64,000 nucleotides of DNA, taken from a virus (Duplodnaviria; Heunggongvirae; Uroviricota; Caudoviricetes). Both the position numbers and the translations under genes were made by a program. Below, one piece after another: positions 11,477 through 42,953 of this stretch (positions are counted from its first letter, which is position 1; the number at the start of each line of letters is the position of its first letter). Where the stretch lies: IMG/VR virus record IMGVR_UViG_3300042400_000593; one strand, given 5' to 3'. The notes below the pieces were generated by a model. The model was not told the DNA's origin, did no database searches, and saw only the letters and a list, made by a program, of their open reading frames with translations.

Positions 11477-14137
11477 TTAATCAAAATCAAATAAATTGTT
11501 AAATGTGTTTTTGTCAGATGTGTTAACTAGTTTCCAGTTAAGAATTCCGATTAAGTTATCTAACTTGTTATCAATAATTGTTTGTTCCATTTCATTATGA
11601 TCAAACGGTAAGTCTTTAAACCATTGCGGTAATCGTAGTTCGTCTACTGGATATGCAACACTTGTAAACCCCAACGGATTTGGTTTAAGTTTACATACAA
11701 TTACTTTTGCACCGTCTGTAATAGACATCGAATATTTGTCACTGTACATACGTTTTAAAGTATTCCAGTTTATACTTGCTCTTACATGCCCGGGCATATT
11801 AGTTTTACCTTGTTTATCTTCTTTTGTAGCATATGAAGTAATACTGTTAGCACGTTTAGGTGAACCTTTTTCCCACCCAGGTCTAGCTTTAAATAGTAAC
11901 CTAAATTCTGTAATGTAATCTAATACAGTATCTTCACTTTCGCCTGCTAGAACCATTTGTAACACTTGTGATAAAAAATCTTGAATAAATTCCGGTGTAT
12001 CACTACGTTTTAAATCTAATCCCATAGCTTTAATTTCACCATTTTTACCATTAGTGTCTTTACGTTTACCTTCTTTATCGTATACTAATACTGCATAACG
12101 CTTTTTAGTAATAAACAACGATTTACTTCCGACGATCTCACGTCCGGCTTTAATAACTTCGCCACGCGATTTAGGACAATGGAATGCATCTAACATAAAC
12201 TGCTGGAATGTGCTATTAACTTGATCACTAATTTGATCATATAACTGAACAATAGTATCTTTAGACCATGGTAAACTACCATTATCGATATCACGTTTGA
12301 GTGTATTGTATGCACTAAAGTAACAGGAGTCAGTATCACCGTAAATAATAGCTTTACCTGTGTGATTATAATCACCGGTAATGATTTCATTTACTTTTGC
12401 AGCCATATGTTTAGCAATTTGGCGACCTACTAGCGTAGTAGATTGTCCAATGCGCTTATCAAAGAACCTACAACCTGGATTAAGAATAGCACCGTATAAA
12501 CTATTTAGGTTAATCTTCTTAACTAACTGTCTTTTATCCCAGTATTCTTCTTCAATTTTATTACCTGCGTTAATAGCTTCTTTTAGTTTTTTCTGCATAT
12601 CTTTACGTTCTGCATACCATCGTTTAAGTAAACCAGGAATAACTCCTTCTACTTCAACGGAAAAGATAGTACCATTAGCAGATAACACCCATGGTTGATT
12701 GCTTTCAAACACTAACCTGTATACTTCGGCAGCACTTAGTACATCTGTATCACCATTTTCCCAGTCAACTACTATATCAGTACCTATTTCTTCATTCATA
12801 ACAGCAGTATATTCAAGAGTACCAAATAATCCTTCCCATGCAGCGGCAAATGATTTACCTTTTGCTAGTTGCATAGAAATAAATTCATCAGTTGCAACAG
12901 GTCTTAACTGACCTACAATAGTCTCCGGACCCATATTTAATGCTCTAATAGCACTAGGATACAGAGAGTTGATATCTAGTGATCCGACCCAGTCATGAAT
13001 TCCTTCTTTTGGATATGCAACATACGCACCTGCAGCTTGAATAGGATCTTCTCTACGTCTATTAGGTACAACAAATCCTCTGTTATGTGCTTCGTTAATA
13101 ATAGCTTGTTCTGTTACAGCAACAGCACCCATAGTAGTTTGTAGTAATACTGTATTTTCATGTGCAAGTGTGTTAGCTAAGTCAATAAATTTTAGTTTTT
13201 TGTCTAAACTATCTAATAGCATGGTATCTTGTCTATTATATTCAATAAATGTTTTAAAGTCATTGTTATATAATTGATCAAGGGTGCCTTCGTATTGTGT
13301 TTTACGGTCGCCTAGTTCATATTCTGCAATAGCATCGAGTCTAAAACTATGTCTTTCTTCATATGTGTACTTTTGATATAGCTGTAAGCTATCTAAATGT
13401 ACACGTCCTACAAAGTCATATGTTACTGATGCTTTACCGTATTTTTCATATTCACGTCTTTTTGGTAATTGATCGAATAAGCAGAACCTACGTGTATCAT
13501 CTTTTGATAATACTTTAGTAACACGATTAACTGTATATGGTATATCAAATCCTTCACTATTCCAACCACTTAAAATGTCAGCATCTTCTATTAAATTAAG
13601 AAATGTGTCTAATAATTCAGCTTCAGTTTTAAATAAAAACGTATTAGGAAACTCTTTTACTTGTTCTTCTGCTTGCTCCATAGTTAATGTCTTTGGAGGA
13701 ATAGCTAAACAGATAAGTGTTTCTAACCATTGTAAGTGTACAGCAATCGCAGTAATGGGCATAAACGCATCATCGGGCGATGCATAACCACGTTCTGGAT
13801 CAAAGTCGACCTCGATATCAAAAAACGCAACGTTTAGTTTAGGCGCGTCGTGGTTAAGATAGTGTTCTGATAAACATGCAAATATTGGATTAATATCTGC
13901 TTCAAATGTTTTACTTGTGCTATGTATAGAAAGTTCTTTTCTATACTCTTTTGTATTTCTACAAACAATTTTTGATACGGGGTCTCTGTAGATTGATTGA
14001 TATTTCCCTTTCGAGTCTTTATAATATAATGTGTGCTTTACGGGAATGTCTTTAAACTCCCGTTCGCCTTTTGAGTTTCTTTCTACAATCTTAATAACAT
14101 CGTTATTGCGATCAAAGTATCCATCTATATAACTCAT
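11477..14137 (-). CDS. family B DNA polymerase (T4 gp43-like) with 3'-5' exonuclease domain
   Basis: Exo I FFDIEVDFDPE; motif A LDINSLYPSAI; motif C IYGDTDSCYFS; 886 aa. Confidence 0.95.
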   Translation of the reverse strand: MSYIDGYFDRNNDVIKIVERNSKGEREFKDIPVKHTLYYKDSKGKYQSIYRDPVSKIVCRNTKEYRKELSIHSTSKTFEADINPIFACLSEHYLNHDAPKLNVAFFDIEVDFDPERGYASPDDAFMPITAIAVHLQWLETLICLAIPPKTLTMEQAEEQVKEFPNTFLFKTEAELLDTFLNLIEDADILSGWNSEGFDIPYTVNRVTKVLSKDDTRRFCLFDQLPKRREYEKYGKASVTYDFVGRVHLDSLQLYQKYTYEERHSFRLDAIAEYELGDRKTQYEGTLDQLYNNDFKTFIEYNRQDTMLLDSLDKKLKFIDLANTLAHENTVLLQTTMGAVAVTEQAIINEAHNRGFVVPNRRREDPIQAAGAYVAYPKEGIHDWVGSLDINSLYPSAIRALNMGPETIVGQLRPVATDEFISMQLAKGKSFAAAWEGLFGTLEYTAVMNEEIGTDIVVDWENGDTDVLSAAEVYRLVFESNQPWVLSANGTIFSVEVEGVIPGLLKRWYAERKDMQKKLKEAINAGNKIEEEYWDKRQLVKKINLNSLYGAILNPGCRFFDKRIGQSTTLVGRQIAKHMAAKVNEIITGDYNHTGKAIIYGDTDSCYFSAYNTLKRDIDNGSLPWSKDTIVQLYDQISDQVNSTFQQFMLDAFHCPKSRGEVIKAGREIVGSKSLFITKKRYAVLVYDKEGKRKDTNGKNGEIKAMGLDLKRSDTPEFIQDFLSQVLQMVLAGESEDTVLDYITEFRLLFKARPGWEKGSPKRANSITSYATKEDKQGKTNMPGHVRASINWNTLKRMYSDKYSMSITDGAKVIVCKLKPNPLGFTSVAYPVDELRLPQWFKDLPFDHNEMEQTIIDNKLDNLIGILNWKLVNTSDKNTFNNLFDFD

Positions 14138-14352
14138 CCTGCACTACCTTCACGACCAATGTCGCGATTAGTTGCATGATCGTTAATCCATGACATAAAT
14201 GCTTCTTCGTTACGTACTTTTGCAACAGCTTCATGACTGTGTACAATAATACTGCATTCGCATCTTGATAAGCATATCTCCGGACGAATACATTCCGTAC
14301 AGATTTTAAATTCTTCCATATTGTATCTCAGTTTATGTGACTTGTGGCTCAC
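14134..14352 (-). CDS. hypothetical Cys-rich small protein (72 aa)
   Basis: CTECIRPEICLSRCEC cysteine cluster; overlaps the polymerase start by 4 nt. Confidence 0.35.
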   Translation of the reverse strand: MSHKSHKLRYNMEEFKICTECIRPEICLSRCECSIIVHSHEAVAKVRNEEAFMSWINDHATNRDIGREGSAG

Positions 14353-14405
14353 AAATACCCTTTTGCAGTTTATGGCCTGCCTACCGTTCTCAATGTTACT
14401 ACTTT

Positions 14406-14660
14406 TTAAATACGTTTTGTAATGTCTAAGATTGCTTCAACTTCTTCCCAATCTTCATTATGATCTGCCCAATTACCTTTATGTGCTATCTTAATAGCTT
14501 TATTAATAACTGCAGGTTTGACTTGTAGTTCTTCTGCTACTGCTTTTACAGTATCTTTTAAACCAGCTTGTAAGTCTTCAACTTCACGTAAAACTAAAGA
14601 ACCTTCGTTGATTAGTTTTTCAAGTTTAGCTTTTTCTTCTGGACCGTATGCTCTACTCAT
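14406..14660 (-). CDS. hypothetical protein (84 aa)
   Basis: ORF track; preceded by a sigma70-like promoter and RBS AAGGAG. Confidence 0.45.
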   Translation of the reverse strand: MSRAYGPEEKAKLEKLINEGSLVLREVEDLQAGLKDTVKAVAEELQVKPAVINKAIKIAHKGNWADHNEDWEEVEAILDITKRI

Positions 14661-21747: not shown

Positions 21748-22122
21748 TTAGTTGTGATCGTAATGGCCATCTTCCATATCTTTAGAAATGTCGTTGAACA
21801 GTTTTTTACAAACTGCTCTCCATGATTTAGAATCAATGGTGTTTGGCAATTCACGGATTGGATATTGTTTAATATACTCTTTATATCCTTTTGCTACTGC
21901 AGATTTAAAGATAGTGTACTTAATTTCTTTATCTGCTTTTTGCAAATCGATAAATTTGTGAATAGTAGGAAGTAAATGATGACGATATACATTGTCGTCA
22001 TTGTTTAGATAAAACACTAAATCGTCAATTAAATCGTAATCAATTTCGTTACCATCGTTAGTTTTTTTAATAAATTCCTCACTTTTAAAGTGAGCGTTTT
22101 CAAGTAAGTCTGTAATACGCAT
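21748..22122 (-). CDS. hypothetical protein (124 aa)
   Basis: ORF track. Confidence 0.4.
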   Translation of the reverse strand: MRITDLLENAHFKSEEFIKKTNDGNEIDYDLIDDLVFYLNNDDNVYRHHLLPTIHKFIDLQKADKEIKYTIFKSAVAKGYKEYIKQYPIRELPNTIDSKSWRAVCKKLFNDISKDMEDGHYDHN

Positions 22123-22152: not shown

Positions 22153-22773
22153 CTAATTAAGGATCCGCTCAACAGTTAAATTAACGTTGCCTAGATGCAA
22201 TCGTACAAACAACAAATTGCGTTCACCAGTAACGTAAAGTTGAGTACCTGAATTATAAATGCCAGGTGATACTAAATTAGATTTAGTACGAGGTTGTAAC
22301 TTTATATTTTTATTACCTTCTGCCCATTCAACAAATTCTGTATTAATATTAGTAATAGAACCTAATGTAACACGAAATTCATATGGAGTATCAGGCATGT
22401 AAACCATACCTTTTTCTAAACCTTCTGCCGGCAAACCGATTGATACGATTATGTTTTCAGGAACGGCGTTCATTAAACCTAAAATATCATCATAGTTATT
22501 AGTATAAACATGCAATCTTGGTTGTTCAAACCTAGTTGCAAAATTTTCCATATCCATTATATATTCGTATATTTGAGGTAACAAACTAAATTCATCTTTT
22601 ATATGCGTCCATCTCGGTTTTATACCTTGATTCATAGTATAGTTAAACTCTTGAGTGTACTTGCGTTTGTCTTTACCTCGAAATATATCCCCGTTCCAAA
22701 GACGGAGTACAATGTTGTACTTGTACTCGCCTTTGTACAGTTTCTTAACAGTGTTATACACTGACATGGTCAA
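22153..22773 (-). CDS. hypothetical protein (206 aa)
   Basis: ORF track; overlaps the clpA-like stop by 20 nt. Confidence 0.45.
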   Translation of the reverse strand: MTMSVYNTVKKLYKGEYKYNIVLRLWNGDIFRGKDKRKYTQEFNYTMNQGIKPRWTHIKDEFSLLPQIYEYIMDMENFATRFEQPRLHVYTNNYDDILGLMNAVPENIIVSIGLPAEGLEKGMVYMPDTPYEFRVTLGSITNINTEFVEWAEGNKNIKLQPRTKSNLVSPGIYNSGTQLYVTGERNLLFVRLHLGNVNLTVERILN

Positions 22774-25036
22774 TCTCTAATTTGTTAAGTGTAATTGCAG
22801 GTACTTTAGGGGTTTTCGGTTTAGCAATAAGTGCAATTTTATCATCAGTGACACTAATTGTTAACCAGCCACCATTTTTAAGATCACCGAACAACATCAT
22901 TTTAGCAAGATCACGTTTGATCTCTTTATCAATTACACGATGTAATGGTCTAGCACCCATCTTAGGATCAAATCCTTTTTCTAACAACCAGTTAGTTGCA
23001 GTTTTGTCAATCTTAATACGAATACCTTTATCTTTAACTTGTTCACGTACTTCATCGATAAACTTGTTAATAACTTTAACCATAGAGTCTTTACTTAACT
23101 TATTAAACGTAATAACACCGTCTAACCTGTTACGGAACTCAGGCGATAAAAACTTCTTAAGATCTGCATCCGAGTAGTCTTTTTCTTGAGTACCAAAGCC
23201 AATCTGATTCTTTTCTGCAGATTGCGCACCTGCATTAGTAGTTAAAATTAACACAATGTGACGACAATCAGCTTGTTTACCATTTGATCCAGTAACAAAC
23301 CCGTTATCCATCATCTGTAGTAATACAGTAGATACATCGGGATGTGATTTTTCGATCTCATCAAATAATAATACAGCGTTAGGATTCTCTTGAATTTGTG
23401 TAATTAACAACCCTGCATTGTCTTCAAAACCTACATAACCTGGAGGACTACCGATCAGTTTACTAATACTGTGTTTCTCTTGATACTCTGACATATCAAA
23501 ACGCAATAATTTAGTATTCAAATGTTTAGCAAGTGCTTTAGCAGTTTCGGTTTTACCACAACCTGTAGGACCCATAAACACAAAGCTACCGATTGGTTTG
23601 TTTTCTGGTTTTAAGCCTGCTTGTGCAACCATAATTTTGTCAACAATTTCGGTTAATGCAGTATCCTGACCATACACTTCAGCTTCAAGTTTTTCTTGTA
23701 GAGTAACTAGTGCAGTAGTTTCAGTTTGCATAATTTGCTCAACTGGCATATTAATCATTTTAGCTAATTCAAATTGAATTTCAGCTTCAGTAACTACTCG
23801 TTCGTCAGCAAGTTTTAAATTAAAGCGTGAACATGCACAATCGATTAGGTCAATAGCTTTGTCCGGTAGCTTTTTATCAGCTTGATATTTTACTGAAAGT
23901 TTAATCGACGCTTGCAATGCATCATCTTTGATTTTAAGTTTATGATGCCCTTCGTAATACTTCTTAATACCTTTAAGAATCTGCAAAGTCATTTCCTGTG
24001 TAGGCTCGTCAACTGTAATACGTTGGAATCTACGCATCAATGCACGATCTTTTTCAAAGTGTTTGCGATATTCATCCCATGTAGTAGATGCAATAACTTT
24101 AATATTACCTTTACTAAGAGCAGGTTTCATCATGTTAGCTAAATCATTAGAAGAATTACCAGATGCACCTGCACCACTAATCATATGTGCTTCGTCGATA
24201 AACAATACACACTTGCCTAACTTTTGTAGAGATTTAATAACTGATTTGAAGCGTTCTTCAAAGTCGCCACGGTATTTAGAACCAGCTAACATAGCAGCAA
24301 TATCTAAATTATAAACAGTATAATCTGTTAAAAATTCAGGAACTGCGCCTTGTACGATGTTATATGCAAGGCCTTCTGCAATTGCAGTTTTACCTACGCC
24401 TGGATCGCCTACTAAAATAACATTATTTTTGTTACGACGACCTAGTGCTAATGAAATATGCTCAAGTTCATCAACACGACCGATAACTGGGTCAATTTTG
24501 TTCTGCTTAACTTCTTCGTTTAAGTTAGTAGTGTAAGCTTGAAGTGCTTTATTGTTAACAGGCGACGATTTAACTGATTCGGTAGTAATATCGTCATCGT
24601 CGGCTACGTTAACTAAGTATTCGTTAAATTTTTCCTTAGAAATATTTACTTGCGATACGTAATAAAACGCCCATGATCTTTTTTCACCTAACATTGCTAG
24701 GAAAAAATCAACAGGCTGAATCTTTTGTCCGCCGTTAAACAACACTTGGGTAAATGCACGATTTAATGATCGTTCAACTGCTTGTGTTTTTTTAGGTTTA
24801 ACTACTACTTCGGGTGTAGTAATCTCATGACATTTAGTTTGCAGATGATCTAAAACTAAATTTTTAAGATACACAGTGTCTGCGCCATACCCTTGAATAG
24901 TATTAGCAAATTGTTCATCTTCCATGAGCATCGAAAACAACACATGCTCAAGAGTAACATATTCGTGATGCATGTTTTTTGCAGCAGTAATAGCTTTGTC
25001 AAAAATAGTTTGTAGTTTTTCGCTTGGTTCAACCAT
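22754..25036 (-). CDS. clpA: ClpA-type AAA+ unfoldase (Clp_N domain, two AAA+ modules, ClpP-docking IGF loop)
   Basis: HEYVTLEHVLFSML is a Clp_N repeat. Walker A motifs are VGDPGVGKTAIAEGLA (D1) and GPTGCGKTETAKALA (D2). RGDFEERFK, LPDKAIDLID and GARPLHRVI blocks are near-collinear with E. coli ClpA. QIGFG lies at the position of the ClpA IGL loop. There is no ClpB middle domain; 760 aa. Confidence 0.9.
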   Translation of the reverse strand: MVEPSEKLQTIFDKAITAAKNMHHEYVTLEHVLFSMLMEDEQFANTIQGYGADTVYLKNLVLDHLQTKCHEITTPEVVVKPKKTQAVERSLNRAFTQVLFNGGQKIQPVDFFLAMLGEKRSWAFYYVSQVNISKEKFNEYLVNVADDDDITTESVKSSPVNNKALQAYTTNLNEEVKQNKIDPVIGRVDELEHISLALGRRNKNNVILVGDPGVGKTAIAEGLAYNIVQGAVPEFLTDYTVYNLDIAAMLAGSKYRGDFEERFKSVIKSLQKLGKCVLFIDEAHMISGAGASGNSSNDLANMMKPALSKGNIKVIASTTWDEYRKHFEKDRALMRRFQRITVDEPTQEMTLQILKGIKKYYEGHHKLKIKDDALQASIKLSVKYQADKKLPDKAIDLIDCACSRFNLKLADERVVTEAEIQFELAKMINMPVEQIMQTETTALVTLQEKLEAEVYGQDTALTEIVDKIMVAQAGLKPENKPIGSFVFMGPTGCGKTETAKALAKHLNTKLLRFDMSEYQEKHSISKLIGSPPGYVGFEDNAGLLITQIQENPNAVLLFDEIEKSHPDVSTVLLQMMDNGFVTGSNGKQADCRHIVLILTTNAGAQSAEKNQIGFGTQEKDYSDADLKKFLSPEFRNRLDGVITFNKLSKDSMVKVINKFIDEVREQVKDKGIRIKIDKTATNWLLEKGFDPKMGARPLHRVIDKEIKRDLAKMMLFGDLKNGGWLTISVTDDKIALIAKPKTPKVPAITLNKLEIDHVSV

Positions 25037-25072
25037 ATTAGTAGCTCCTTGTAGTATTAAATAAAGTTATAT

Positions 25073-25100
25073 TATACACTATTTTATAATAATGTCAACT
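25073..25100 (-). promoter_or_regulatory. sigma70-consensus promoter for the clpA-like gene (TTGACA-N16-TATAAT)
   Basis: Minus strand gTTGACAttattataaaatagtgTATAATataactttatttaatactacAAGGAGctactaatATG; the -35 overlaps the dnaJ-like stop. Confidence 0.55.
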
Positions 25101-25928
25101 TAATTGGCTTTGTATTTGCTGTAACTGTGCTACTAATACAGGATCTGTAACTGATACTGGAGCAATTTTAATAACAGTAACAAATCTTCCAGTTTGTTTA
25201 CTGTGTAAATTAGTAAACCCTGCGCCTGCCTTTGCAAATTCTGTTCCTGATTCAACACCTGGCCTAATTGGCATTTGAACAGTATCGCCTGTTATTGTTT
25301 TAACAGTTTTAGTACATCCAATCATTGCTTCGATTGGGGAAATGTCTAATGTTGTATATAAATCATTTCCTTCTCGTCTAAAATTACGGTCAGGTAGTAT
25401 ATGTACAGTTACATTAAGATTCCCGCGTGGAACATTAGGTATCGAATCGTCACCTAATCCATTATATCTAATAGTATCACCGTGGTCAATACCTGCAGGA
25501 ACATTAATGTTTACAGTCTGCGGTCGACCACTCGGTAACGTAAACGTAGCATCTACTTGTTTTCCATTAAACGATTCGACTAATGTTACTTGAACTTGTA
25601 GATTTAAGTCTCTGTTACGTTGTTGTCTAAATCCATTGCCAAACATATTTGTAAAATGTGCATGTTGACCAAACATATCGTTCATGTCAAAATGGAAATG
25701 TTGTCCACCGCCAAAGCCACCAAAGTGATGACCGCTTTGTTGCATATCGTATTCTTGACGTTTTTGTGGATCACTTAGTGTGTCATATGCTACGGAGATA
25801 TCTTTAAAGGTTTCGGGAGAACCGCCTTTGTCTGGGTGATGTTTGTTTGCTAATGAACGATATGCTTTTTTAATATCGTCCTGTGATGCGTCTTGCGACA
25901 CACCTAATTTTGAATAAAAGTCTGTCAT
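25095..25928 (-). CDS. type II J-domain co-chaperone (DnaJ/CbpA-like; no zinc-finger domain)
   Basis: J-domain DFYSKLGV...YRSLANKHHPDKGG (HPD tripeptide); Gly/Phe-rich linker GHHFGGFGGGQHF; C-terminal client-binding domains similar to CbpA; no CxxCxGxG repeats; 277 aa. Confidence 0.85.
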   Translation of the reverse strand: MTDFYSKLGVSQDASQDDIKKAYRSLANKHHPDKGGSPETFKDISVAYDTLSDPQKRQEYDMQQSGHHFGGFGGGQHFHFDMNDMFGQHAHFTNMFGNGFRQQRNRDLNLQVQVTLVESFNGKQVDATFTLPSGRPQTVNINVPAGIDHGDTIRYNGLGDDSIPNVPRGNLNVTVHILPDRNFRREGNDLYTTLDISPIEAMIGCTKTVKTITGDTVQMPIRPGVESGTEFAKAGAGFTNLHSKQTGRFVTVIKIAPVSVTDPVLVAQLQQIQSQLS

Positions 25929-25940: not shown

Positions 25941-25989
25941 ATAATAAAAGGTCAGTTAGTATAGTAATTATACTATACTAAGACTGACC
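25941..25989 (-). terminator. long nested hairpin followed by a U-run (minus strand), between the lysis cassette and the dnaJ-like gene
   Basis: GGTCAGT t AGTATAGTA atta TACTATACT a AG ACTGACC; revcomp of 25941-25949 gives TTTTATTAT after the hairpin. Confidence 0.45.
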
Positions 25990-26003
25990 TGTCAATATTT
26001 TGA

Positions 26004-26237
26004 TTATTTACGTTTTTTAACTACTTTTTTTGGAGCTGGTTTTACAACTGGTTTTTTAGGTGGAACTTTTTTACCTTCAAACTTCTTATGAACTTTGATA
26101 GTTTTACATTGTTTCTTACCTTTTACAGTTTTGCAAACTTCTTTAGTAGTTGGACCAACGTGTCCTTCTTCATGATTAGCATAAGCAACTGGAGCTGCTA
26201 ACATGCTAATAATAATTAATGATAATAGTTTTTTCAT
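26004..26237 (-). CDS. secreted Lys-rich small protein (77 aa, signal peptide)
   Basis: MKKLLSLIIISMLAAPVAYA signal peptide; very basic KKPVVKPAPKKVVKKRK tail. Confidence 0.45.
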   Translation of the reverse strand: MKKLLSLIIISMLAAPVAYANHEEGHVGPTTKEVCKTVKGKKQCKTIKVHKKFEGKKVPPKKPVVKPAPKKVVKKRK

Positions 26238-26248
26238 ATTGTTTCCTT

Positions 26249-26713
26249 TTATGATTTTGGAATTGGTTTGCCTGCAGGGCGTTTTCTTGCCACTTTAGGA
26301 GCTTCTTGTACAACAGGTTCTGGAGCTGTTTCGACTACAGGTTCTGGAATAACAACCGGTGCAGGAGCAGGCGGTGTATAAACCGGTGCAGGTGCAGGCG
26401 CATACGCAGGAGCAGGTGCTGCAGGCGGTGGTGTAAAGCTGCTAAAATCAGGTAAACTCGGACCAGCAATTTTTTCTTGTGTACGACCGTGTGCTGAGAT
26501 ACCTAATACAACACCCATTGCAATGTGATAAAGACCACCACCTTGTAATGTTAATGGTTGCCACATGTCTAAGTTTTGTCCAGGGTTATAATATTGCAAC
26601 ATGTTGTATAAAATCGGTCCTACAATAAAGTCAAACAAACATGTTGCCATGTAAGTCATTGCCATCATTGGGCGCCAGTATTTTGTCATAAAATCCTCTT
26701 TGTTTTCTTCCAT
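26249..26713 (-). CDS. membrane protein with two TM helices and Pro/Ala-rich tail; holin candidate
   Basis: Hydrophobic segments MAMTYMATCLFDFIVGPILYNML and LYHIAMGVVLGISA; C-terminal PAAPAPAYAPAPAPVYTPPAPAPVV; sits in the lysis cassette. Confidence 0.4.
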   Translation of the reverse strand: MEENKEDFMTKYWRPMMAMTYMATCLFDFIVGPILYNMLQYYNPGQNLDMWQPLTLQGGGLYHIAMGVVLGISAHGRTQEKIAGPSLPDFSSFTPPPAAPAPAYAPAPAPVYTPPAPAPVVIPEPVVETAPEPVVQEAPKVARKRPAGKPIPKS

Positions 26714-26728
26714 TTACGTTCCTTGTAT

Positions 26729-27001
26729 TTAAATTGCTTTTGCTGCTGTTGATGCAATTGTGATTGCAGTGTTTATAATTTTGTTTAATTCTGTTTGTGC
26801 GTTAAGTGCGGCTGCATCTTCTACAATAATCCCTGTCGTAGAAATGTCTGATAACAATTCTTCATATTCTGAAGCACTAATTGTTCCATTTTGGTAATCT
26901 TCTGTCAATGATTTAAGTTCTGCTGCTGCATCTGCAAGAGCGTGACTTTTAACAGTATCATATCCACTTAAACTATTTAAAATATCTTGTGTACTACTCA
27001 T
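26729..27001 (-). CDS. hypothetical protein (90 aa)
   Basis: ORF track; lysis cassette. Confidence 0.4.
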   Translation of the reverse strand: MSSTQDILNSLSGYDTVKSHALADAAAELKSLTEDYQNGTISASEYEELLSDISTTGIIVEDAAALNAQTELNKIINTAITIASTAAKAI

Positions 27002-27402
27002 CGTGGTTTACCTCCTATTGTTTGGGCAATTGTAGTTGCCGCTTTTGTTAAAATATCCATTTTTTGTTTACAATAAGCTTCACTTATTTTTTCTGTTTTA
27101 TGATATCGTACATGTAATGGTTCAGTTAAATCCATTAATGATTCTGATAATTTTATAGTAGCTTTGTTTTCTGGTATAAATTCAGCATAGTTTTTAAATT
27201 CAATACTTTTTAAATATATACGATCTACAATAGGAACCATCTGTTGTTGGTTGCTACAAAACTCCGAGCCTATTTGAGAAAGGCTACGAACGTCATTAAT
27301 CAATTGATATTCGTTTTGATCAAATTTTGCCATAAAATACGCATCCATTGCTGCACAACCAGATAGCATACTAAGTATAATAATTGCTAATACTTTTTTC
27401 AT
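26998..27402 (-). CDS. lipoprotein (134 aa)
   Basis: Signal peptide plus lipobox LSGC (MKKVLAIIILSMLSGCAAMD). Confidence 0.55.
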   Translation of the reverse strand: MKKVLAIIILSMLSGCAAMDAYFMAKFDQNEYQLINDVRSLSQIGSEFCSNQQQMVPIVDRIYLKSIEFKNYAEFIPENKATIKLSESLMDLTEPLHVRYHKTEKISEAYCKQKMDILTKAATTIAQTIGGKPR

Positions 27403-27698
27403 TTTACGTCCTCATATATTTTCTTTTGTTGCTTGTACCAATCTTGCCATGCAAGATATCGTTCTCGTAGTTCATAGTAAGAACCGTAATTCTCACTAGC
27501 ATTTTCTAATATATCGCTTAGTTCTGGTTTAGTTTGAGATAATGTCTTTAACGTTGGCGCCGGCTCCATCAAGGATGGAGGTACCTGCGGGAAGCTCATT
27601 GTTAACGGCACTGTTGTAGAGCACCCTTGCAACATCAGGAACAGTACACTCGGCGTTAATAATCTCTTTGTGTTCTTGGATAATCTTTTTAGTCGCAT
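27399..27698 (-). CDS. o-spanin (outer-membrane lipoprotein spanin subunit), overlapped arrangement
   Basis: Lipobox LMLQGCS; Pro-rich mature part; its start lies inside the 3' end of the i-spanin gene in another frame, and it extends 130 nt beyond. Confidence 0.6.
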   Translation of the reverse strand: MRLKRLSKNTKRLLTPSVLFLMLQGCSTTVPLTMSFPQVPPSLMEPAPTLKTLSQTKPELSDILENASENYGSYYELRERYLAWQDWYKQQKKIYEDVK

Positions 27699-28029
27699 AT
27701 ACTTTTTCCTTGATAACTTTTACTTTTTCTACTACACGAGTTTCTATTTGAACATTAACTTCGTGTGACTGAGCTTCTGCTTCTGCTATTTTTTGTTCAA
27801 GTTCTGCTACACGGTTACGCCATTCCATTTCAACACCATATCCGCCTTTAAAATATACACCAGCAACTAACAAAATTGTTGATATTATATTTAACAATAA
27901 TTTGTAATGATCTAAGAATGGAATAAACTTAATAAAAAATCCTGCTACGGTACCGATAGCACCGAGTAGCAGGATTGTATTAACCGCCCAAAGTAAATAT
28001 GAATCAGGGAGGAAATGTAAGATAAACAT
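27529..28029 (-). CDS. i-spanin (inner-membrane spanin subunit)
   Basis: N-terminal hydrophobic segments followed by a coiled-coil periplasmic region (RNRVAELEQKIAEAEAQSHEVNVQIETRVVEKVKVIKEKV); overlaps the o-spanin; directly downstream of the endolysin. Confidence 0.55.
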   Translation of the reverse strand: MFILHFLPDSYLLWAVNTILLLGAIGTVAGFFIKFIPFLDHYKLLLNIISTILLVAGVYFKGGYGVEMEWRNRVAELEQKIAEAEAQSHEVNVQIETRVVEKVKVIKEKVYATKKIIQEHKEIINAECTVPDVARVLYNSAVNNELPAGTSILDGAGANVKDIISN

Positions 28030-28676
28030 TATGCACTCAATACTTTGATTGCATTAGCATAGTGATGTTTACGGTCTTCAATTCCAATAGTTCCGCCATT
28101 AATTCTTTTTGTAAGTGTAATGATGTCACCTTTATCTGCCCATTGGTTTAAGTTATTAGTTTCCCAAAACCAGCAAGCACTTTGTACAGCACCTTCAAAT
28201 GTTTCTAAGTATTCAATAGCTTCGTCAATTTCCATTTCTAAACTTTCAGCAAAGCGTGTGTAGTTGTCTTTACCTGTTAATTGGATAAGACCACGTCCGC
28301 AGAATTTATAACCTTCGCCTGTAGATTCGTCTCCATTGCCCATACGTCCGCCATACACTTTACTTGCAATTTTTTCCGGTTTACCTGCATATGATTCTGC
28401 TAATGCTGCAGTTGGAAAGTATTTAGGAAACACTTTTTGCAAAGTAGCTGCTTTGTAGTTTAAGTTTTCTTTCAATGCAGTGTAGTTACCGCTTTCGTGT
28501 GCAGTTTGAGCAAGGAATGCTGCAACACGTTCTGGTGTGTTAATATCGTATTCTGGTAAAATAGACGATAGTGCATCATACCATTCTGAAATATATGAGT
28601 TACCTGGAATAATTTTTGCTAAGTGTGCTTCTGTAAATGTAAATGCCATTATTTTTTCTCCAATGCTACAGCCCAT
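28029..28676 (-). CDS. endolysin, glycoside hydrolase family 19 (chitinase-like lysozyme)
   Basis: ERVAAFLAQTAHESGNYTALKE and GRGLIQLTG are GH19 catalytic-region signatures; 215 aa. Confidence 0.75.
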   Translation of the reverse strand: MGCSIGEKIMAFTFTEAHLAKIIPGNSYISEWYDALSSILPEYDINTPERVAAFLAQTAHESGNYTALKENLNYKAATLQKVFPKYFPTAALAESYAGKPEKIASKVYGGRMGNGDESTGEGYKFCGRGLIQLTGKDNYTRFAESLEMEIDEAIEYLETFEGAVQSACWFWETNNLNQWADKGDIITLTKRINGGTIGIEDRKHHYANAIKVLSA

Positions 28677-29380
28677 CCGCTGTTTTCAAATATAAATGTA
28701 TTACCAACTTTGGTAATATTGTAATTGCCAATGCGTTTTGTAAAGTACATTACTTCTGCAATTGCACTTCCTTCTAACATGATTGGACCTTGTATATAAC
28801 TATATACCTCTGGCTTAGGTCCGCTAGTGATAATATCAAATTTTAACGAATCACTCCACTGATTTTTAAATGTAATCGATTCATCAAGTACACTAACTTC
28901 TGAAAAACTTTCTTTAAAAAAGTTACTGAAATTATCTAGACCTTGTTTTTTAGTTGCTTCCTCATAATCTTCTTGATTGCAAGGAATATGTTTAGTTAAA
29001 TTTTTTAAATTTGCATCGTAACTTTTAAAATTTTTAAAATAACGGAATTTCATATCAGGAATTCCTGTAAGTTTTTCAATTCCGTTTAGTAATTCTAAAA
29101 TAGTCTCAGGTGCGTGTCGTGTACGTTCAATTTCGATGAATACTTTGTAATTGCCATCGTCTGTTTCTCCCGGACTAACGTCTGCATCTAGTACAGAGTC
29201 ATACCCCATTTCAACAAAGTTTTCTAAATCTTTTGCAGGATCTTCGTGATCAACAGTAAATGACAATACGATAACATCTTCGTCATCACCAATTTTACTT
29301 TTATATGCATCGATTTCAAATATACGATTCACTAAATGTTTAAGATCGGTTGCGTGTAAACTTTCGTTAATCATATTCAT
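28649..29380 (-). CDS. hypothetical protein (243 aa)
   Basis: ORF track. Confidence 0.45.
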   Translation of the reverse strand: MNMINESLHATDLKHLVNRIFEIDAYKSKIGDDEDVIVLSFTVDHEDPAKDLENFVEMGYDSVLDADVSPGETDDGNYKVFIEIERTRHAPETILELLNGIEKLTGIPDMKFRYFKNFKSYDANLKNLTKHIPCNQEDYEEATKKQGLDNFSNFFKESFSEVSVLDESITFKNQWSDSLKFDIITSGPKPEVYSYIQGPIMLEGSAIAEVMYFTKRIGNYNITKVGNTFIFENSGWAVALEKK

Positions 29381-31567: not shown

Positions 31568-32419
31568 TTACTTAATCCCAATCATCGGCACTGAACTATT
31601 TGGTAACATAGTAACAGGTAATACTCCATTCCATTTTTCAATAGCATTTAGTTCTGCTACACCTGGATTGTTACGAACAGCTTCGCCTTTTAACCGAATT
31701 GCTTTAGCTTCGGCTTCTGCTACTAACAATCTTGCATTAGCTTCGCCTTCTGCAACTGCAATAGCTTTCTGTGCTTCAGCTTTAGCAGTTTCAATTTCAT
31801 TTTGACGTGTGATTGCAATTTGTGATGCAGAAATCTTAGCATCGATTGCGTTAGTTACAGTTTCTGGCAATCTAATATTGCCAACCCATGACAAGTGATC
31901 TAAATGAATGCCGTATGGTTCAATTTCAGCACGCACTCTAACTTCGGCAGCTTTAATTAACTCTGCTTTACCTTCGCCGTATACTGATTCGATTGGTTTA
32001 GTAGACGATTCTGTATTAATCGCATCTCGCACTAAGTTACGCAAGTACACATCGGTAATTTCGGTGATACCTTTACGATACTTTTGGAACAATACTGGAA
32101 TCTTATCTGGTTGTAACGTATAGGTAATACCAATGTCAGCGTTTACAGATAAACCTTCTTTAGTTTGGAACGTAATAGACTCATCTTCAGCATTACCTTC
32201 AGTGTGGGATTTAGACCATGTGTAGTTTTGCATAAAAGTCGGAAACGTGTATAATCGTTCATTAACACCGATCCAGTAACGTCCTGGTGATAAAATTTCT
32301 GAATCAACCCCTTTGTCACCACCGAGTAAGTGTACCTTAATACCAACTTCACCTACGTTAACATTTGAGCAGCCAGAAAGCACAGTAGCCATTGCAGCAA
32401 CTAATAGTAATTTATTCAT
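31568..32419 (-). CDS. SPFH/band-7 (HflK/C-, prohibitin-like) domain lipoprotein
   Basis: Lipobox LSGCS; SPFH-like core; C-terminal Ala/Glu-rich coiled coil (IAITRQNEIETAKAEAQKAIAVAEGEANARLLVAEAEAKAIRLKGEA); 283 aa. Confidence 0.6.
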   Translation of the reverse strand: MNKLLLVAAMATVLSGCSNVNVGEVGIKVHLLGGDKGVDSEILSPGRYWIGVNERLYTFPTFMQNYTWSKSHTEGNAEDESITFQTKEGLSVNADIGITYTLQPDKIPVLFQKYRKGITEITDVYLRNLVRDAINTESSTKPIESVYGEGKAELIKAAEVRVRAEIEPYGIHLDHLSWVGNIRLPETVTNAIDAKISASQIAITRQNEIETAKAEAQKAIAVAEGEANARLLVAEAEAKAIRLKGEAVRNNPGVAELNAIEKWNGVLPVTMLPNSSVPMIGIK

Positions 32420-32628
32420 TATTTTACATCCTTAAAAAGTTCGTCAACGGGTTTAACTGCATCTTTCCATAATTTGTAAATTACAACTGGATCGATGATT
32501 AGTAAAATAAACCAACCTAAACTAAATTCCCACCATTGGTTTGATGACATATAGTATGGTAGTACAAAAATAAACTGTAGTAGAAAAAATAATAATACAG
32601 CTAACACCTTAAAATAAATTAACAACAT
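32419..32628 (-). CDS. small two-TM membrane protein (69 aa), start-stop overlapped partner of the SPFH gene
   Basis: Hydrophobic LAVLLFFLLQFIFVL and GWFILLIIDPVVIY segments; sigma70-like promoter immediately upstream. Confidence 0.5.
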   Translation of the reverse strand: MLLIYFKVLAVLLFFLLQFIFVLPYYMSSNQWWEFSLGWFILLIIDPVVIYKLWKDAVKPVDELFKDVK

Positions 32629-32659
32629 AGTTGCTCCTTAGTAATTAAATAAAGTTATA

Positions 32660-32687
32660 TTATACACTATTATATAATAAGTGCAAG
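32660..32687 (-). promoter_or_regulatory. sigma70-like promoter (TTGCAC-N16-TATAAT) for the small-membrane/SPFH operon; near-identical copy of the clpA promoter/5'UTR
   Basis: Minus strand cTTGCACttattatataatagtgTATAATataactttatttaattactAAGGAGcaacATG; about 45 nt are almost identical to 25053-25100. Confidence 0.55.
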
Positions 32688-33950: not shown

Positions 33951-34331
33951 TTAGTACATCGGTTGACTAAAGTCAAACTCTTGTACAGTTGATGCGTTTG
34001 ATGCGCCTAAATTAATGTCTGTAGGTCGATGATCTGATACTGCTAAAATTGACTTAGTTTCAACTCGTCTAACGGTGAATACAGTATTATTATCTTCTAC
34101 TTGAACACCACGTGTCCACCGTCCGTGTTCAACTAAGATCCAATCACCAATTTTTACATCGTGTTGATCAGGACCGATTTTATAAACTTTACCCCAACGA
34201 GGTTTAATTCCTTCAGTTTTTCCATTATCGCTACTAACAATAATACCGCTAGCGGTTACTTGTTCTTCAAAATTCATATCCGAAACAAGTACATTATCAT
34301 GAATAGTTTCTAATTGTTCTGTTATAATCAT
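33951..34331 (-). CDS. GroES-like co-chaperonin (T4 gp31-like)
   Basis: LETIHDNVLVS..EEQVTASGIIV..KPRWGKVYKIGPD..VKIGDWILV..ILAV follows the Cpn10 consensus (L.P..DRVLV..E..T.GGI.L...KP..G.V.AVG.G...VKVGD.V.F...IL.V); 126 aa. Confidence 0.6.
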   Translation of the reverse strand: MIITEQLETIHDNVLVSDMNFEEQVTASGIIVSSDNGKTEGIKPRWGKVYKIGPDQHDVKIGDWILVEHGRWTRGVQVEDNNTVFTVRRVETKSILAVSDHRPTDINLGASNASTVQEFDFSQPMY

Positions 34332-35427: not shown

Positions 35428-36036
35428 TTACGGAATAGCATAACGACCTAAATACTTCACAAATACAGTAGCACCACCGTCATAAGTATAAGCTTCAATA
35501 GCATGATATGCTGAATTGTCAATTTCAATTGCCGGAAATGACGCTTCACGGATAACAACACCAGCATTAGCTGACGATATTGCAGTTAATTCATGTGAAG
35601 ACACACCTAAACCAATTAAATGAACTCTTATAGAAGCGTAAACTCCTCTTGCGTTAACTGGCCAGTTACTAAAACGAAGAGTCGAAGCACGAGCAACTGA
35701 AAATAATTGAAAAACGCCGTTATATAATGATGCTTCGAGTATATTATCTCCAGTATCAGTTAAACTTTGTGAATAAGTAGAACGCACACCGTAAAACTTA
35801 TTATATCCGCCATTTAAAATTACTCCTTCGCCTAAATCACTTGTAACTGCAGTAGCAGTGTCACCAATTGACGATTTTAATACTGCTTTATTTTGCAATT
35901 CTTCAATTTCAACCTTAGCTACTTGTAATGCAGTTTTGATTGCACCGAAGTTATTTCGAAAACCGGCACTATCATTGTCTTGCCCTGCAACCGGATAAAG
36001 GGCGTTGATTGTTGTTGTTGTTATATCACTACTCAT
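35428..36036 (-). CDS. short fibre-like structural protein with conserved fibre N-terminal motif
   Basis: GQDNDSAGFRNNFGAIKTAL parallels GNDGTGDSIRDAFRKVNENF at the N-terminus of the giant fibre gene; 202 aa. Confidence 0.45.
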   Translation of the reverse strand: MSSDITTTTINALYPVAGQDNDSAGFRNNFGAIKTALQVAKVEIEELQNKAVLKSSIGDTATAVTSDLGEGVILNGGYNKFYGVRSTYSQSLTDTGDNILEASLYNGVFQLFSVARASTLRFSNWPVNARGVYASIRVHLIGLGVSSHELTAISSANAGVVIREASFPAIEIDNSAYHAIEAYTYDGGATVFVKYLGRYAIP

Positions 36037-38666
36037 TGGAGGTTCCTATTATTAAATACAATATATTTATCGGAATCTTCACCGATAATTTTGTTTATTA
36101 TAAATCTGTCAACTGTATAATCTACCAGTTTAAAATCAAAATTGCTATTTTTAATGTTTAGCATAACAGTATCTGCACTTCCTACTTTACAAAAACATAA
36201 AGGAACTGCTAATATAAATCCTAGTTCCATTCTAGAATCAGATTGGACAGATCTCATCCATAATGGAAGATAATCCCATTTTATTTCTCCTAGATTTGAA
36301 ATTTGAGATCGCCACGAGTTAACGTTATTTTTATTAGATGATGTTTGATACATTAACGGGTCAATCATTTTAATGTATATTACTTCGTACACTGGAGTTT
36401 TAGTTCCTGGAAGATATGCGGTTGCTTTGTATACATCTTCAAATTGAAACCGTTTAATAGAATTATTAGTTAATGAACTATAATCTGATAATAATTTTGT
36501 TTCAATACCGGCATAAATTAACATTGATAACGAATCCTGAACTCCAAATGAAGTATCGTATGGTCGATATATCGATGATGATGTAAAAATATCCAAGTTG
36601 TTAATAAATTTAGACCAGATATCTCTATGAGTTAGTGTCATAAAAGGTTTAACGTATATATTACTGTAATTAAGCTTATTTGGAGTATCAACTGTTATTA
36701 AAAACTCACGATTTGAAATTCCTAGTTGATATTGATCAGATGCGGCAACTGTAAATTTATACACTCGGTCGATTGTAGTAGTGTTGTTATCAAATGTAGT
36801 ATATTGAGGTAACCGTAAGTCAAATGTTAACAGTCCGACTTTTTTAATTGTATCATTAAATGTTGTAAAATATGCCGGTGTAAATGTTGTTAGATTATTA
36901 TCAAAAATTCGTAACTCTGTTACATTGATTTCAGTTGTATCGTAAAATCTAGTTAGTAACGTATCTGCTTTTAAAATAGATGTTCCGAATGTTGTAAGGC
37001 TTGAATCAAATACGCAGTTATTATTATCAAATGACACATAGTGTATTAATGGATTAGAGTCAAATACTGTAGTGTAATTATCAAAGCTAAGATGATTAGA
37101 ATATTGAGATATCGTTCCGGTAATTTCACCGTCGTATTCTAATTTTAATCCAGGTGGTAATTTCCCATCAACTATCGTATAAACAACAATTGCATTAGAA
37201 AGAGTGGTAGTTGCGTTAATACTTAACACCGAGCTGTATCCTGCATTAATACGTCCTAAGTCAGTTGCGGTGCTCCATTGGATGACACTGTCGATTTCAC
37301 CAATTATATCAACAGTAAACACACGAGAAACACTATTAGTTTCGTCTGTATCGTTATCTCCAATTCGAATTGCTGTTACTGTAAAGTTGTAAGTATTTGT
37401 AATAGCTGATTGTGCAGGAACTCTTCCAAATACATCACCGGTGATACTATCAAAACTCATCCCTAACGGAAGTTCGCTTTTTGTTCCAATAAAGAATCTA
37501 GTACCATTAGCAATATTAACATCTAATGGAGACGACATGGTCAATGTGTATTCAGTTGAATTGCTTATTGATACTTGAGTGACCTGATTGTATATATTAG
37601 ACCCGTTAAATTTTATATAATGGCCGACTTGTGGCGCCTTAGTAGTCGATGTAGTTGATACTGTGTAACTACCAATTCGATTGTCTTGTAACGTTTTTCG
37701 ATTAGCAATTGCAATTGAATTTGCGTTGACTAATTCTAATTTGTAATATATTAGCTTAGTATCAAATACATCTAATACAAATGTAAGGTAATTGTTAGCG
37801 CGATGTGTTCCTAGATTAGACGGAGTAATCCAAACTGGCTGTTGATTATAGGTTACGTCTGCTGTAAAGATATTCGAGTTTGAAATTAACGATTCTGAAT
37901 CAGCTCTAAAATACATTGGATTAATAACATATAATTGAAACTTGCGGTAAGGCGGAGATAATGTATCACCGTCTGTAACTGCAACTACAAAATCGTAAAT
38001 TCTATTAAGAGCTCTAGGCTGAGATATAGTAAAATAATCATATCCAAGACCTGCATAATCATACTTTAAAACATCGTACCCATTTTGTGCTTGTGGGCTT
38101 GCAAAATCGTATGGTCCGACACCATAAAAACCGTGATCATATGATCCGTTTCCTTCTTCAAGCCGTAATGTTGTTACTGAATTAACTTCACCATAAATCA
38201 CTCCGTCAGGTGTAAGCGATAACCCAGGCGGCAATACTCCTTCTGTTATAAAATAAGTTAATGATTGTCCAGCAAGCGTATCAGTATCTATTGCGGTTAG
38301 TTGATAGTTAACAACTGAGTTATCAACTACAAATAATTGTTGGTAAGGTCCAACGTCTAATAACCCTGTAGGTGTTAAAATTACTGGCGCGTCTGCACCG
38401 CTAACAGTAATAGTAAATGTTCTGTCAGCAATTTGATTATTCTTAGTTGCTCTGATACAGAAAGAAAAATCAGTATCTCGAGCAACTTCAAATGGCGACC
38501 CGAGTATATAATCGTTATATAACCATAATCCGCCAGGGAGCTTTCCAGAAATAACTGAATATTTGACCTCGTTATCGGGATTAACAGGTAGTTGTAAATT
38601 AAAATTAGAGCCTTCTTGGAATATACCAAGAGACCCGGATGGTTGTGTCCAAACAGTTAGTGCCAT
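36033..38666 (-). CDS. large virion structural protein (baseplate/fibre-associated; 877 aa) with TFD/FDNN-type repeats
   Basis: ORF track; canonical T4 late box TATAAATA 17 nt upstream; repetitive Thr/Asn/Phe-rich segments. Confidence 0.5.
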   Translation of the reverse strand: MALTVWTQPSGSLGIFQEGSNFNLQLPVNPDNEVKYSVISGKLPGGLWLYNDYILGSPFEVARDTDFSFCIRATKNNQIADRTFTITVSGADAPVILTPTGLLDVGPYQQLFVVDNSVVNYQLTAIDTDTLAGQSLTYFITEGVLPPGLSLTPDGVIYGEVNSVTTLRLEEGNGSYDHGFYGVGPYDFASPQAQNGYDVLKYDYAGLGYDYFTISQPRALNRIYDFVVAVTDGDTLSPPYRKFQLYVINPMYFRADSESLISNSNIFTADVTYNQQPVWITPSNLGTHRANNYLTFVLDVFDTKLIYYKLELVNANSIAIANRKTLQDNRIGSYTVSTTSTTKAPQVGHYIKFNGSNIYNQVTQVSISNSTEYTLTMSSPLDVNIANGTRFFIGTKSELPLGMSFDSITGDVFGRVPAQSAITNTYNFTVTAIRIGDNDTDETNSVSRVFTVDIIGEIDSVIQWSTATDLGRINAGYSSVLSINATTTLSNAIVVYTIVDGKLPPGLKLEYDGEITGTISQYSNHLSFDNYTTVFDSNPLIHYVSFDNNNCVFDSSLTTFGTSILKADTLLTRFYDTTEINVTELRIFDNNLTTFTPAYFTTFNDTIKKVGLLTFDLRLPQYTTFDNNTTTIDRVYKFTVAASDQYQLGISNREFLITVDTPNKLNYSNIYVKPFMTLTHRDIWSKFINNLDIFTSSSIYRPYDTSFGVQDSLSMLIYAGIETKLLSDYSSLTNNSIKRFQFEDVYKATAYLPGTKTPVYEVIYIKMIDPLMYQTSSNKNNVNSWRSQISNLGEIKWDYLPLWMRSVQSDSRMELGFILAVPLCFCKVGSADTVMLNIKNSNFDFKLVDYTVDRFIINKIIGEDSDKYIVFNNRNLQ

Positions 38667-42222: not shown

Positions 42223-42283
42223 AGTAGCACCTCGTAGTTATTATAAAGTAGTATAATAACATAATTGTGCAAATATTACAATA

Positions 42284-42613
42284 TTATACTTTGTCTTTCT
42301 TAGGACGACCTTTTTTCTTAACCGGTAACGGTTGAACAAGTTGAACAATCTTTGCAGGTTCGGCTTTTTCTGTAGGTTTTTTAGCAGCGGGTTTTTTAGT
42401 AGCAGGTTTAACACCTTTAGCTACAACTGGAGCTTCTACTGGTTTAACTTCTGTTAATTTAGTCACTTTTGGTTTAGCTTTTTTTGGTTTTACCTCTGCT
42501 AAAGCAACTTCTTTAATAACAATACTTTCATTGATGTCGGTATGCACTAGTACTGGAGTAGATTGGTCTTCAGTAGTCTTTCTTTTAAATAACGATTTGA
42601 TAAATTCAAACAT
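42284..42613 (-). CDS. Lys-rich DNA-binding protein with AT-hook (KKKGRPKK)
   Basis: 109 aa; repeated KP-V-KK tracts; GRP core of the AT-hook. Confidence 0.45.
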   Translation of the reverse strand: MFEFIKSLFKRKTTEDQSTPVLVHTDINESIVIKEVALAEVKPKKAKPKVTKLTEVKPVEAPVVAKGVKPATKKPAAKKPTEKAEPAKIVQLVQPLPVKKKGRPKKDKV

Positions 42614-42632
42614 AAAATCTCCTTTCCCATAT

Positions 42633-42920
42633 TTATAATTGGTCTAATGTCTTTAAACTACTAACTGGCATTTCCCATATTTTTCTACGTTCAACACCTT
42701 TGGATTGTGCAAATTGTTTAGCATTACATTTACTACAAACATGATAAAATTGATTAGTTAATCTTGCTGGATCCATTGATCCTTTATCACGATTAAATAT
42801 CCGATTACAATTGTCGCACCTTAATACGATTACAGTTTTTTTTCGAAAGTAAGTGTGAGATTTTCCATATTTACTAATCCTTGTATACTCAGTAGTAACA
42901 TATTCTGTAGAAATAATCAT
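42633..42920 (-). CDS. C4 zinc-ribbon protein (95 aa)
   Basis: CDNCN...CSKCN cysteine pairs. Confidence 0.4.
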   Translation of the reverse strand: MIISTEYVTTEYTRISKYGKSHTYFRKKTVIVLRCDNCNRIFNRDKGSMDPARLTNQFYHVCSKCNAKQFAQSKGVERRKIWEMPVSSLKTLDQL

Positions 42921-42953
42921 ACAGTATTTACGTTAAGATTATAAAATTTATTT

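Follow-up and report, generated by a model that had tools for sequence, protein, structure and literature searches.

We have found that an uncultivated jumbo phage of about 370 kilobases (kb) encodes a ClpA-family unfoldase, a J-domain protein directly upstream of it and, farther along the same genome, a ClpP peptidase. The first two genes lie in a stretch of viral DNA of 64,000 nucleotides (nt) (IMG/VR record IMGVR_UViG_3300042400_000593), which was analyzed at its full length and is called the window here; the third lies on a metagenomic contig that overlaps the end of the window. The clpA-like gene (22754-25036, minus strand) specifies 760 amino acids (aa) and the dnaJ-like gene (25095-25928, minus strand) 277 aa. 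On balance, we favor the interpretation that the phage carries its own ClpAP protease along with a J-protein that recruits DnaK, and that this set is probably transcribed early.

The 760-aa protein is best explained as a functional, hexameric, double-ring AAA+ unfoldase of the ClpA family, an assignment that draws on its open reading frame (ORF) and on matches in Pfam, NCBIfam, the Protein Data Bank (PDB) and phrog_4871 (5e-246). Pfam recognizes Clp_N, AAA, AAA_lid_9, AAA_2 and ClpB_D2-small domains. The N-domain (aa 1-145; 24602-25036, minus) was delimited by Pfam Clp_N and the alignment to E. coli ClpA; only one of its two repeats is significant in Pfam (aa 17-65, 30.8 bits, above the cut-off of 20.7). 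The first AAA+ module, D1 (aa about 170-430; 23747-24529, minus), holds the AAA (aa 206-340) and AAA_lid_9 (aa 347-430) matches, and the second module with its small domain, D2 (aa about 440-728; 22853-23719, minus), those to AAA_2 (aa 480-639) and ClpB_D2-small (aa 647-723). The best NCBIfam model is ClpA TIGR02639 (848.9 bits, E 3e-255), against 676.7 bits for the ClpB model, so that ClpA is the top family by a wide margin. In a phmmer search of the PDB, E. coli ClpA 1ksf was matched with an E-value of 5e-192 and in collinear fashion (residues 7-734 against 5-740). Both rings carry their catalytic motifs: Walker A GDPGVGKT, pore loop KYRG, Walker B LFIDEAH and arginine finger RRF in D1; Walker A GPTGCGKT, pore loop GYVG, Walker B LLFDEIEK, sensor-1 TTN, arginine finger PEFRNRLD and sensor-2 GARP in D2. 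These ATPase motifs are kept across about 200 homologues.

The resemblance to E. coli ClpA (1ksf/1r6b; ClpAP 6w1z and 6uqe) therefore extends over the whole length at 43% identity and takes in the N-domain, D1, D2, all ATPase and pore-loop motifs, the docking tripeptide in D2 and the lack of a middle domain. Because the alignment has no insertion at the D1-D2 junction (760 aa against 758 in E. coli), the protein is a ClpA without the coiled-coil middle domain of the ClpB, ClpC or ClpE type; its matches to ClpB and ClpC break into two stretches. A ClpB-like disaggregase working with DnaJ and DnaK was ruled out on the same ground. The phage protein differs from its E. coli counterpart in being viral, in a divergent N-domain and in reading IGF where E. 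coli has IGL. Within the N-domain, HHEYVTLEH pairs with E. coli RHEFMTVEH and the two Glu positions are conserved; this stretch holds what we take to be the ClpS-contact glutamates E23 and E28 of E. coli ClpA. The gene neighborhood differs too, as bacterial clpA is preceded by clpS (loci L178, L181 and L195) and phage clpA by the J-protein gene.

A first-pass annotation of the window, made from its sequence, had described this protein as collinear with ClpA and equipped with an intact ClpP-docking loop, and both parts of that description hold. The IGF tripeptide (aa 612-614; 23195-23203, minus) sits at the position of the IGL ClpP-docking loop of E. coli ClpA, with E. coli ERKSIGLIHQD aligned to EKNQIGFGTQE in the window protein. 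Loss of the loop in orthologues had been named as the observation that would count against the annotation, and the homologues were checked for it: I-G-[FLMV] is kept in 206/206, with IGF in 203 and IGL (E. coli), IGM (phage 121Q) and IGV (a Vibrio phage) in one each. Since IGF is kept while the residues flanking it vary among homologues, selection on the docking tripeptide is indicated.

This conservation bears on whether the unfoldase works with ClpP at all. A ClpA-like unfoldase, remodeler or translocase could act without ClpP, together with the J-protein, host DnaK and the GroES-like protein, in the folding or assembly of very large virion proteins. E. coli ClpA can remodel RepA on its own, the linkage to a J-protein is conserved, a GroES-like gene lies 9 kb away, the window encodes structural proteins of 3126 and 1341 aa, and a translocase or assembly role has been proposed for jumbo-phage ClpA and ClpX (Iyer et al. 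2021, PMC7824862). A docking tripeptide present in 206 of 206 homologues would be needless for such a protein, however, and the ClpB/ClpC-type middle domain for coupling to DnaK is absent. The gene is also preceded by a sigma-70 promoter, as replication genes are, and not by the TATAAATA type found before the structural gene at 36033-38666, and ClpA is unflagged by mass spectrometry in virions of phage PA5oct, in which its neighbors are flagged. We therefore regard a ClpP-independent role as quite unlikely.

The phage has a ClpP of its own. Contig SRR27421004_6414 (L172) is 100% identical to positions 57361-64000 of the window (6640 nt) and continues for a further 9.7 kb. It carries a clpP gene of 193 aa (11798-12379 on the contig, minus, or ~69158-69739 in window numbering), about 5.4 kb past the window end and about 44 kb from clpA, behind its own perfect TTGACA-17-TATAAT promoter. 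The protein scores 239.7 bits against Pfam PF00574, 273.3 bits against NCBIfam NF001368 (cut-off 249) and 263 bits against the TIGR00493 equivalog, below the 308.6 required there. Its identity to E. coli ClpP is 54-55%, and its Ser97, His122, Asp171 triad is intact. The possibility that it is a prohead protease was rejected, as its score against the head-maturation model NF045542 (90.2 bits) falls below the cut-off of 120 and that against NF001368 lies above its own.

Within the window itself, tblastn with E. coli queries found no ClpP, ClpS or GrpE, and a phage carrying ClpA only was at first suggested by the ClpP-less window; clpP on the overlapping contig overturned this. No ClpS turned up in the approximately 84 kb covered. 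Among the E. coli sequences used (ClpA, ClpP, ClpS, GrpE and Def), that of ClpP proved 100% identical to a host-derived record, and that of ClpA gave an alignment that agrees with the one to the PDB entry. A scan of IMG/VR with the pattern IY[DN]TM[QE][FY] missed the ClpP of this phage, whose motif reads ILDTMNF.

Under the interpretation we favor, ClpA hexamers would most likely dock via IGF onto a ClpP tetradecamer and feed unfolded proteins into it. The partner would probably be the phage's own ClpP, and the presence of phage clpP suggests that a complete ClpAP protease is brought along, and not just something that adapts the host enzyme; complexes in which phage ClpA joins host ClpP are also conceivable. 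The J-protein would presumably recruit host DnaK, since no Hsp70 gene was seen near dnaJ. The early proteostasis set would then comprise dnaJ, clpA, clpP and the GroES-like gene, joined in many relatives by a gene for peptide deformylase. It could serve bulk quality control amid massive phage protein synthesis, or it could degrade selected host or phage proteins.

The first-pass annotation had suggested that a phage bringing its own ClpA might redirect host ClpP, an idea made less likely by the phage ClpP and the co-occurrence of the two proteins. ClpA and ClpP were both matched in Atu_ph07, Phosso, the PA5oct group, 121Q, PBECO4, SP27, G17, UE-S1 and JNE01, so that co-occurrence in the cultured lineages examined has the pattern of a self-sufficient pair. 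RaK2, K64-1, GAP32, CBB and XbC2 have ClpP and are not among the ClpA matches listed; Vibrio phage 2.275.O has ClpA, but is not among the ClpP matches listed. A phage ClpA that works mainly on the host ClpP tetradecamer, competing with host ClpA and ClpX and steering proteolysis to substrates that the phage unfoldase selects, such as defense proteins or regulators, would fit the intact and conserved IGF loop; IGF also occurs in bacterial ClpA homologues (e.g. in Lysobacterales loci). It would likewise fit a consensus sigma-70 promoter, which suggests expression while host ClpP is abundant, and the identity of about 55% between phage and E. coli ClpP, which makes cross-docking plausible. Set against this are a bona fide phage ClpP behind an equally strong promoter, the co-occurrence just described, and the lack of ClpS noted above. 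We consider such a hijack of host ClpP unlikely, and the naming of defense proteins as targets of ClpA is pure speculation.

Promoter sequences point to early expression. The dnaJ gene is preceded by TTGACA, a 17-nt spacer and TATAAT (25967-25995, minus) and clpA by TTGACA, a 16-nt spacer and TATAAT (25071-25098, minus), each matching the consensus at 12/12 positions; a Shine-Dalgarno sequence, AAGGAG (25045-25050, minus), was read ahead of clpA. Between 19.5 and 33.5 kb these are the only perfect 12/12 sigma-70 promoters, and relatives have kept a TTGAC[AT]...TATAAT element in the spacer between dnaJ and clpA. Sigma-70-type promoters also precede the clamp loader gene and other non-structural genes, and the Ig-domain structural gene (36033-38666) has the T4-late-like TATAAATA in front of it, which suggests at least two promoter classes in the window. 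Because consensus sigma-70 promoters suggest early transcription by the host RNA polymerase, the dnaJ/clpA/clpP module is probably transcribed early. Neither the PA5oct omics paper nor PhageExpressionAtlas states when the orthologues of ClpA or DnaJ are expressed.

The first-pass annotation had also seen that the clpA promoter and 5' untranslated region nearly match those of an operon at 32.6 kb with a gene of the SPFH/Band-7 family, and this likeness is real. The 27-nt segment ATAGTGTATAATATAACTTTATTTAAT, which takes in the -10 element and the first part of the 5' untranslated region, occurs in exactly two minus-strand copies (25056-25082 and 32644-32670), where shuffled sequences lead one to expect 0.00. 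The two promoter regions are similar across about 68 alignment columns that reach from the -35 region as far as the Shine-Dalgarno sequence, and their -35 hexamers are unlike (TTGACA against TTGCAC). The second copy stands before a 69-aa membrane ORF (32419-32628) and the SPFH/Band-7 gene (31568-32419), the latter identified by Pfam PF01145 (1.9e-27).

Several observations weigh against a phage-encoded, early ClpAP protease. The ClpA score of 848.9 bits does not reach the TIGR02639 equivalog cut-off of 993.15, so that the window protein, in this respect too unlike E. coli ClpA, is a divergent member of the ClpA family and not an equivalog under NCBI's rule. The clpP gene lies outside the window, and its link to clpA rests on the overlapping, 100%-identical metagenome contig and not on a closed genome. 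The two genes, 44 kb apart, are not co-transcribed, and the position of clpP varies among relatives. The residues that we take to line the hydrophobic docking pocket of E. coli ClpP are mostly kept or conservatively replaced in the phage protein, with the exceptions of Y60, which is S, and F112, which is K; the geometry of ClpA-ClpP docking may therefore differ. ClpP was flagged by mass spectrometry in PA5oct virion preparations (GenBank note; L090, 3001-3672), in which ClpA and DnaJ carry no such flag and neighbors of ClpA do, and the ClpP of phage CBB (CBB_104) was reported in a virion preparation (PMC5259590). Virion-associated ClpP could have a morphogenetic role, or it could reflect packaging or contamination. 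Promoter-like sites as a whole show no excess in the region (64 against 60.7 in shuffles), and the prediction of early transcription draws on the promoter consensus only. Finally, we found no functional study of any phage ClpA in the literature.

The J-protein belongs to class B (type II), as the first-pass annotation had proposed. Its J domain (aa 3-61; 25746-25922, minus; Pfam DnaJ 3.3e-22) contains the HPD motif at aa 31-33 (25830-25838), read from the translation. It is followed by a G/F-rich linker (about aa 62-108; 25605-25745, minus), which translates as GHHFGGFGGGQHFHFDMNDMFGQHAHFTNMFGNGF and has no CxxCxGxG repeats, and by DnaJ_C substrate-binding domains (aa 109-255; 25164-25604, minus; Pfam 3.5e-31, profile positions 2-149 of 152). 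With a single Cys in the whole protein, there is no zinc finger; the DnaJ_bact model accordingly matches in two stretches, the first of which stops at profile position 140, and leaves the zinc-finger region unmatched. In the PDB it is matched best by T. thermophilus DnaJ2 (6psi) and a CbpA-like protein (3lz8). Like the class-B J-proteins E. coli CbpA, T. thermophilus DnaJ2 (6psi, 4j80) and the Klebsiella CbpA-like protein (3lz8), it is about 280 aa long and has the J domain with HPD, the G/F region and two C-terminal beta-sandwich domains but no zinc finger. It differs from them in being phage-encoded and linked to clpA, in scoring well below the CbpA equivalog cut-off (NF007618, 114.8 bits against 403), and in having no cbpM-like gene adjacent to it among the window ORFs searched with Pfam. 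The description of the protein as CbpA-like is therefore valid for its architecture only. The same annotation had placed the gene downstream of clpA, which is true only in plus-strand coordinates; as both genes are on the minus strand, dnaJ lies upstream (5') of clpA, with a spacer of 58 nt.

Another J-protein of a phage offers a comparison. Rki of phage RB43 is reportedly a short, J-domain-only protein that stabilizes sigma-32, whereas the window protein is a full-length class-B co-chaperone with substrate-binding domains. Both are phage-encoded and would be expected to act via host DnaK; that RB43 encodes Rki is given in PMC12619734 by way of a citation of Perrody et al. (2012).

Relatives of the locus were sought at the protein level, because a Megablast search with the locus found nothing similar among 50,697 phage records and there is thus no close cultured relative. 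IMG/VR holds 493 relatives of the window ClpA at 75-95% identity, and over 120 protein clusters share 77% identity or more with it. ClpA homologues, which form phrog_4871, are annotated in many cultured jumbo phages, among them ClpA-like proteins of Atu_ph07 (gp292), Phosso (gp195), PA5oct (gp298), 121Q (gp581) and Vibrio phage 2.275.O (gp418). These cultured members have the architecture and motifs of the window protein, yet are only 39-42% identical to it, and the window ClpA falls in a separate large clade known only from metagenomes.

The order dnaJ then clpA is found in Phosso, Atu_ph07 and PA5oct and in 76/80 of the IMG/VR relatives. At least two of the remaining four have no upstream sequence, as L032 and L074 begin inside clpA. 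Phage 121Q, with IGM, and Vibrio phage 2.275.O, with IGV, have no adjacent dnaJ. A peptide deformylase gene (def) stands between dnaJ and clpA in 31/80 relatives (within L009-L088; for example L035, 171-665, Pfam PF01327, E 1.5e-41) and in Phosso (L001, 5451-5969), and the ancestral cassette may have been dnaJ-def-clpA. No peptide deformylase was found in the window or its extensions.

A more specific reading of this arrangement is that dnaJ-(def)-clpA and phage clpP form a self-contained early system for proteolysis and the processing of nascent chains that selectively removes host proteins and is not general housekeeping. The J-protein, often with deformylase, would take the place that clpS has in bacterial clpS-clpA operons, and the targets would be defense systems, regulators or N-degron-type substrates, whose removal would serve takeover of the cell. 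Taken as a whole, this proposal is quite unlikely.

In relatives, clpP was seen at two kinds of site: it is flanked by a DsbA-like gene and the DNA polymerase gene (L162, L164 and L166-L168), or it lies between a gene called gene X and uvdE (L139 and L160). Both sites are empty in the window (14138-14423; 42223-42951 / 63723-64000). Judging from these positions, clpP has moved within these genomes.

The genomic context of clpA is that of a phage. The window codes for a T4-type family-B DNA polymerase, a clamp loader, PhoH, UvdE, a GroES-like protein, lysis-like genes and giant structural ORFs of 3126 and 1341 aa; in the phage collection, the DNA polymerase is nearest to that of Sinorhizobium phage Phosso (49.7%) and then to that of Agrobacterium phage Atu_ph07 (45%). 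An identical ClpA protein is present on metagenomic contigs of up to 372 kb, and three contigs from one metagenome run are each 100% identical to parts of the window. The proportion of G and C at third codon positions (GC3) is 0.244 in clpA and 0.216 in dnaJ, and 0.17-0.26 in other window genes. The best cellular ClpA is about 41-43% identical to that of the window. Phage-like GC3 and the distance to cellular ClpA indicate that clpA has long been resident in phages, and the claim of the first-pass annotation that the gene is not a recent capture is strengthened by orthologues across several jumbo-phage lineages.

These data also bear on whether clpA belongs to the phage at all. Several records labeled as phage that contain ClpA or ClpP are evidently host fragments (Listeria, Staphylococcus, Acinetobacter MD-2021a, and an 'Escherichia phage' record of 3 kb whose ClpP matches that of E. 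coli at 100% identity), so that a recent host-gene passenger, a bacterial contaminant or a chimeric assembly had to be considered here. The gene is, however, flanked by phage genes (T4-type DNA polymerase, clamp loader, lysis-like and structural) on contigs of up to 372 kb, recurs on the three identical contigs and in the 493 IMG/VR relatives, matches phage GC3 and is only about 43% identical to the nearest cellular ClpA. A non-phage origin is effectively refuted.

As gene inventory, these findings are not new, since ClpA and an adjacent DnaJ have already been annotated and discussed for jumbo phages. Attai et al. (2018, PMC6102473) reported ClpA to be highly conserved in most Rak2-like phages and listed for Atu_ph07 DnaJ gp293 beside ClpA gp292, along with ClpP gp676, ClpS gp708, ClpX gp2 and ClpB gp492. 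Iyer et al. (2021, PMC7824862) described ClpA/ClpX, DnaJ, ClpP and ClpS in jumbo phages, and Clp proteins also appear in other phage genome papers (PMC11242549, PMC5259590). The additions made here are modest increments: the dnaJ-(def)-clpA cassette, the near-invariant IGF, the phage clpP, the common consensus promoters and the new clade known only from metagenomes. This lineage, which is abundant in metagenomes, shows that selection has kept the dnaJ-clpA pair together with the docking loop and a phage clpP. A virus-encoded ClpAP protease is a clear prediction that can be tested in the cultured phages PA5oct, Atu_ph07 and 121Q, and it would fit the unusually complete proteostasis toolkits that jumbo phages carry. 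If the protease has specific host targets, it would represent a new class of phage takeover or anti-defense mechanism; if it performs general quality control, it would be an ordinary auxiliary function.

Several further features of the locus and its relatives were recorded. The GroES/Cpn10-like gene (33951-34331, minus) matches Pfam PF00166 at 31.4 bits and, with dnaJ, clpA and the SPFH gene, makes up a stretch rich in proteostasis genes. The TTGACA/TATAAT promoters of replication and proteostasis genes are in several cases followed by ATA[AG]CTTT. The 69-aa hydrophobic ORF overlaps the start of the SPFH gene by TAATG (31568-32628, minus) and has no Pfam match; the pair resembles the bacterial NfeD-SPFH arrangement. 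A 335,231-bp contig, PBPT01000016.1 (L177), assigned to the metagenome-assembled genome (MAG) 'Candidatus Neomarinimicrobiota bacterium RS350', encodes a ClpA 61% identical to that of the window, has a GC content of 0.344 and carries dnaJ directly upstream of clpA among phage-like neighbors. It is almost certainly a related jumbo-phage genome that was binned into a bacterial MAG.

Directly upstream of dnaJ lies a block that resembles a lysis cassette (26004-29380, minus). It includes a weak Glyco_hydro_19 match (28029-28676), small membrane proteins, a Lys-rich secreted ORF of 77 aa, and lipobox-like signal sequences in ORFs 26998-27402 (LSGC) and 27399-27698 (LQGC); the two ORFs of the block nearest to dnaJ are kept in relatives. 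Between this block and dnaJ is a hairpin with an 18-bp stem followed by UUUUAUUAU (25941-25998, minus; -25.3 kcal/mol, z = -5.6), which none of 200 shuffles equaled in folding and within which the dnaJ promoter has its spacer and -10 element. The hairpin is likely a terminator of the upstream small genes, or it could be a palindromic operator. Downstream of clpA, a 206-aa ORF with a TTG start (22153-22773) overlaps the 3' end of clpA by 20 nt (22754-22773), and beyond it TATAAATA also precedes a 124-aa ORF (21748-22122). In the otherwise near-identical contigs L004 and L005, a different ORF of 160 aa replaces the 206-aa ORF after clpA, which marks this as a variable spot.

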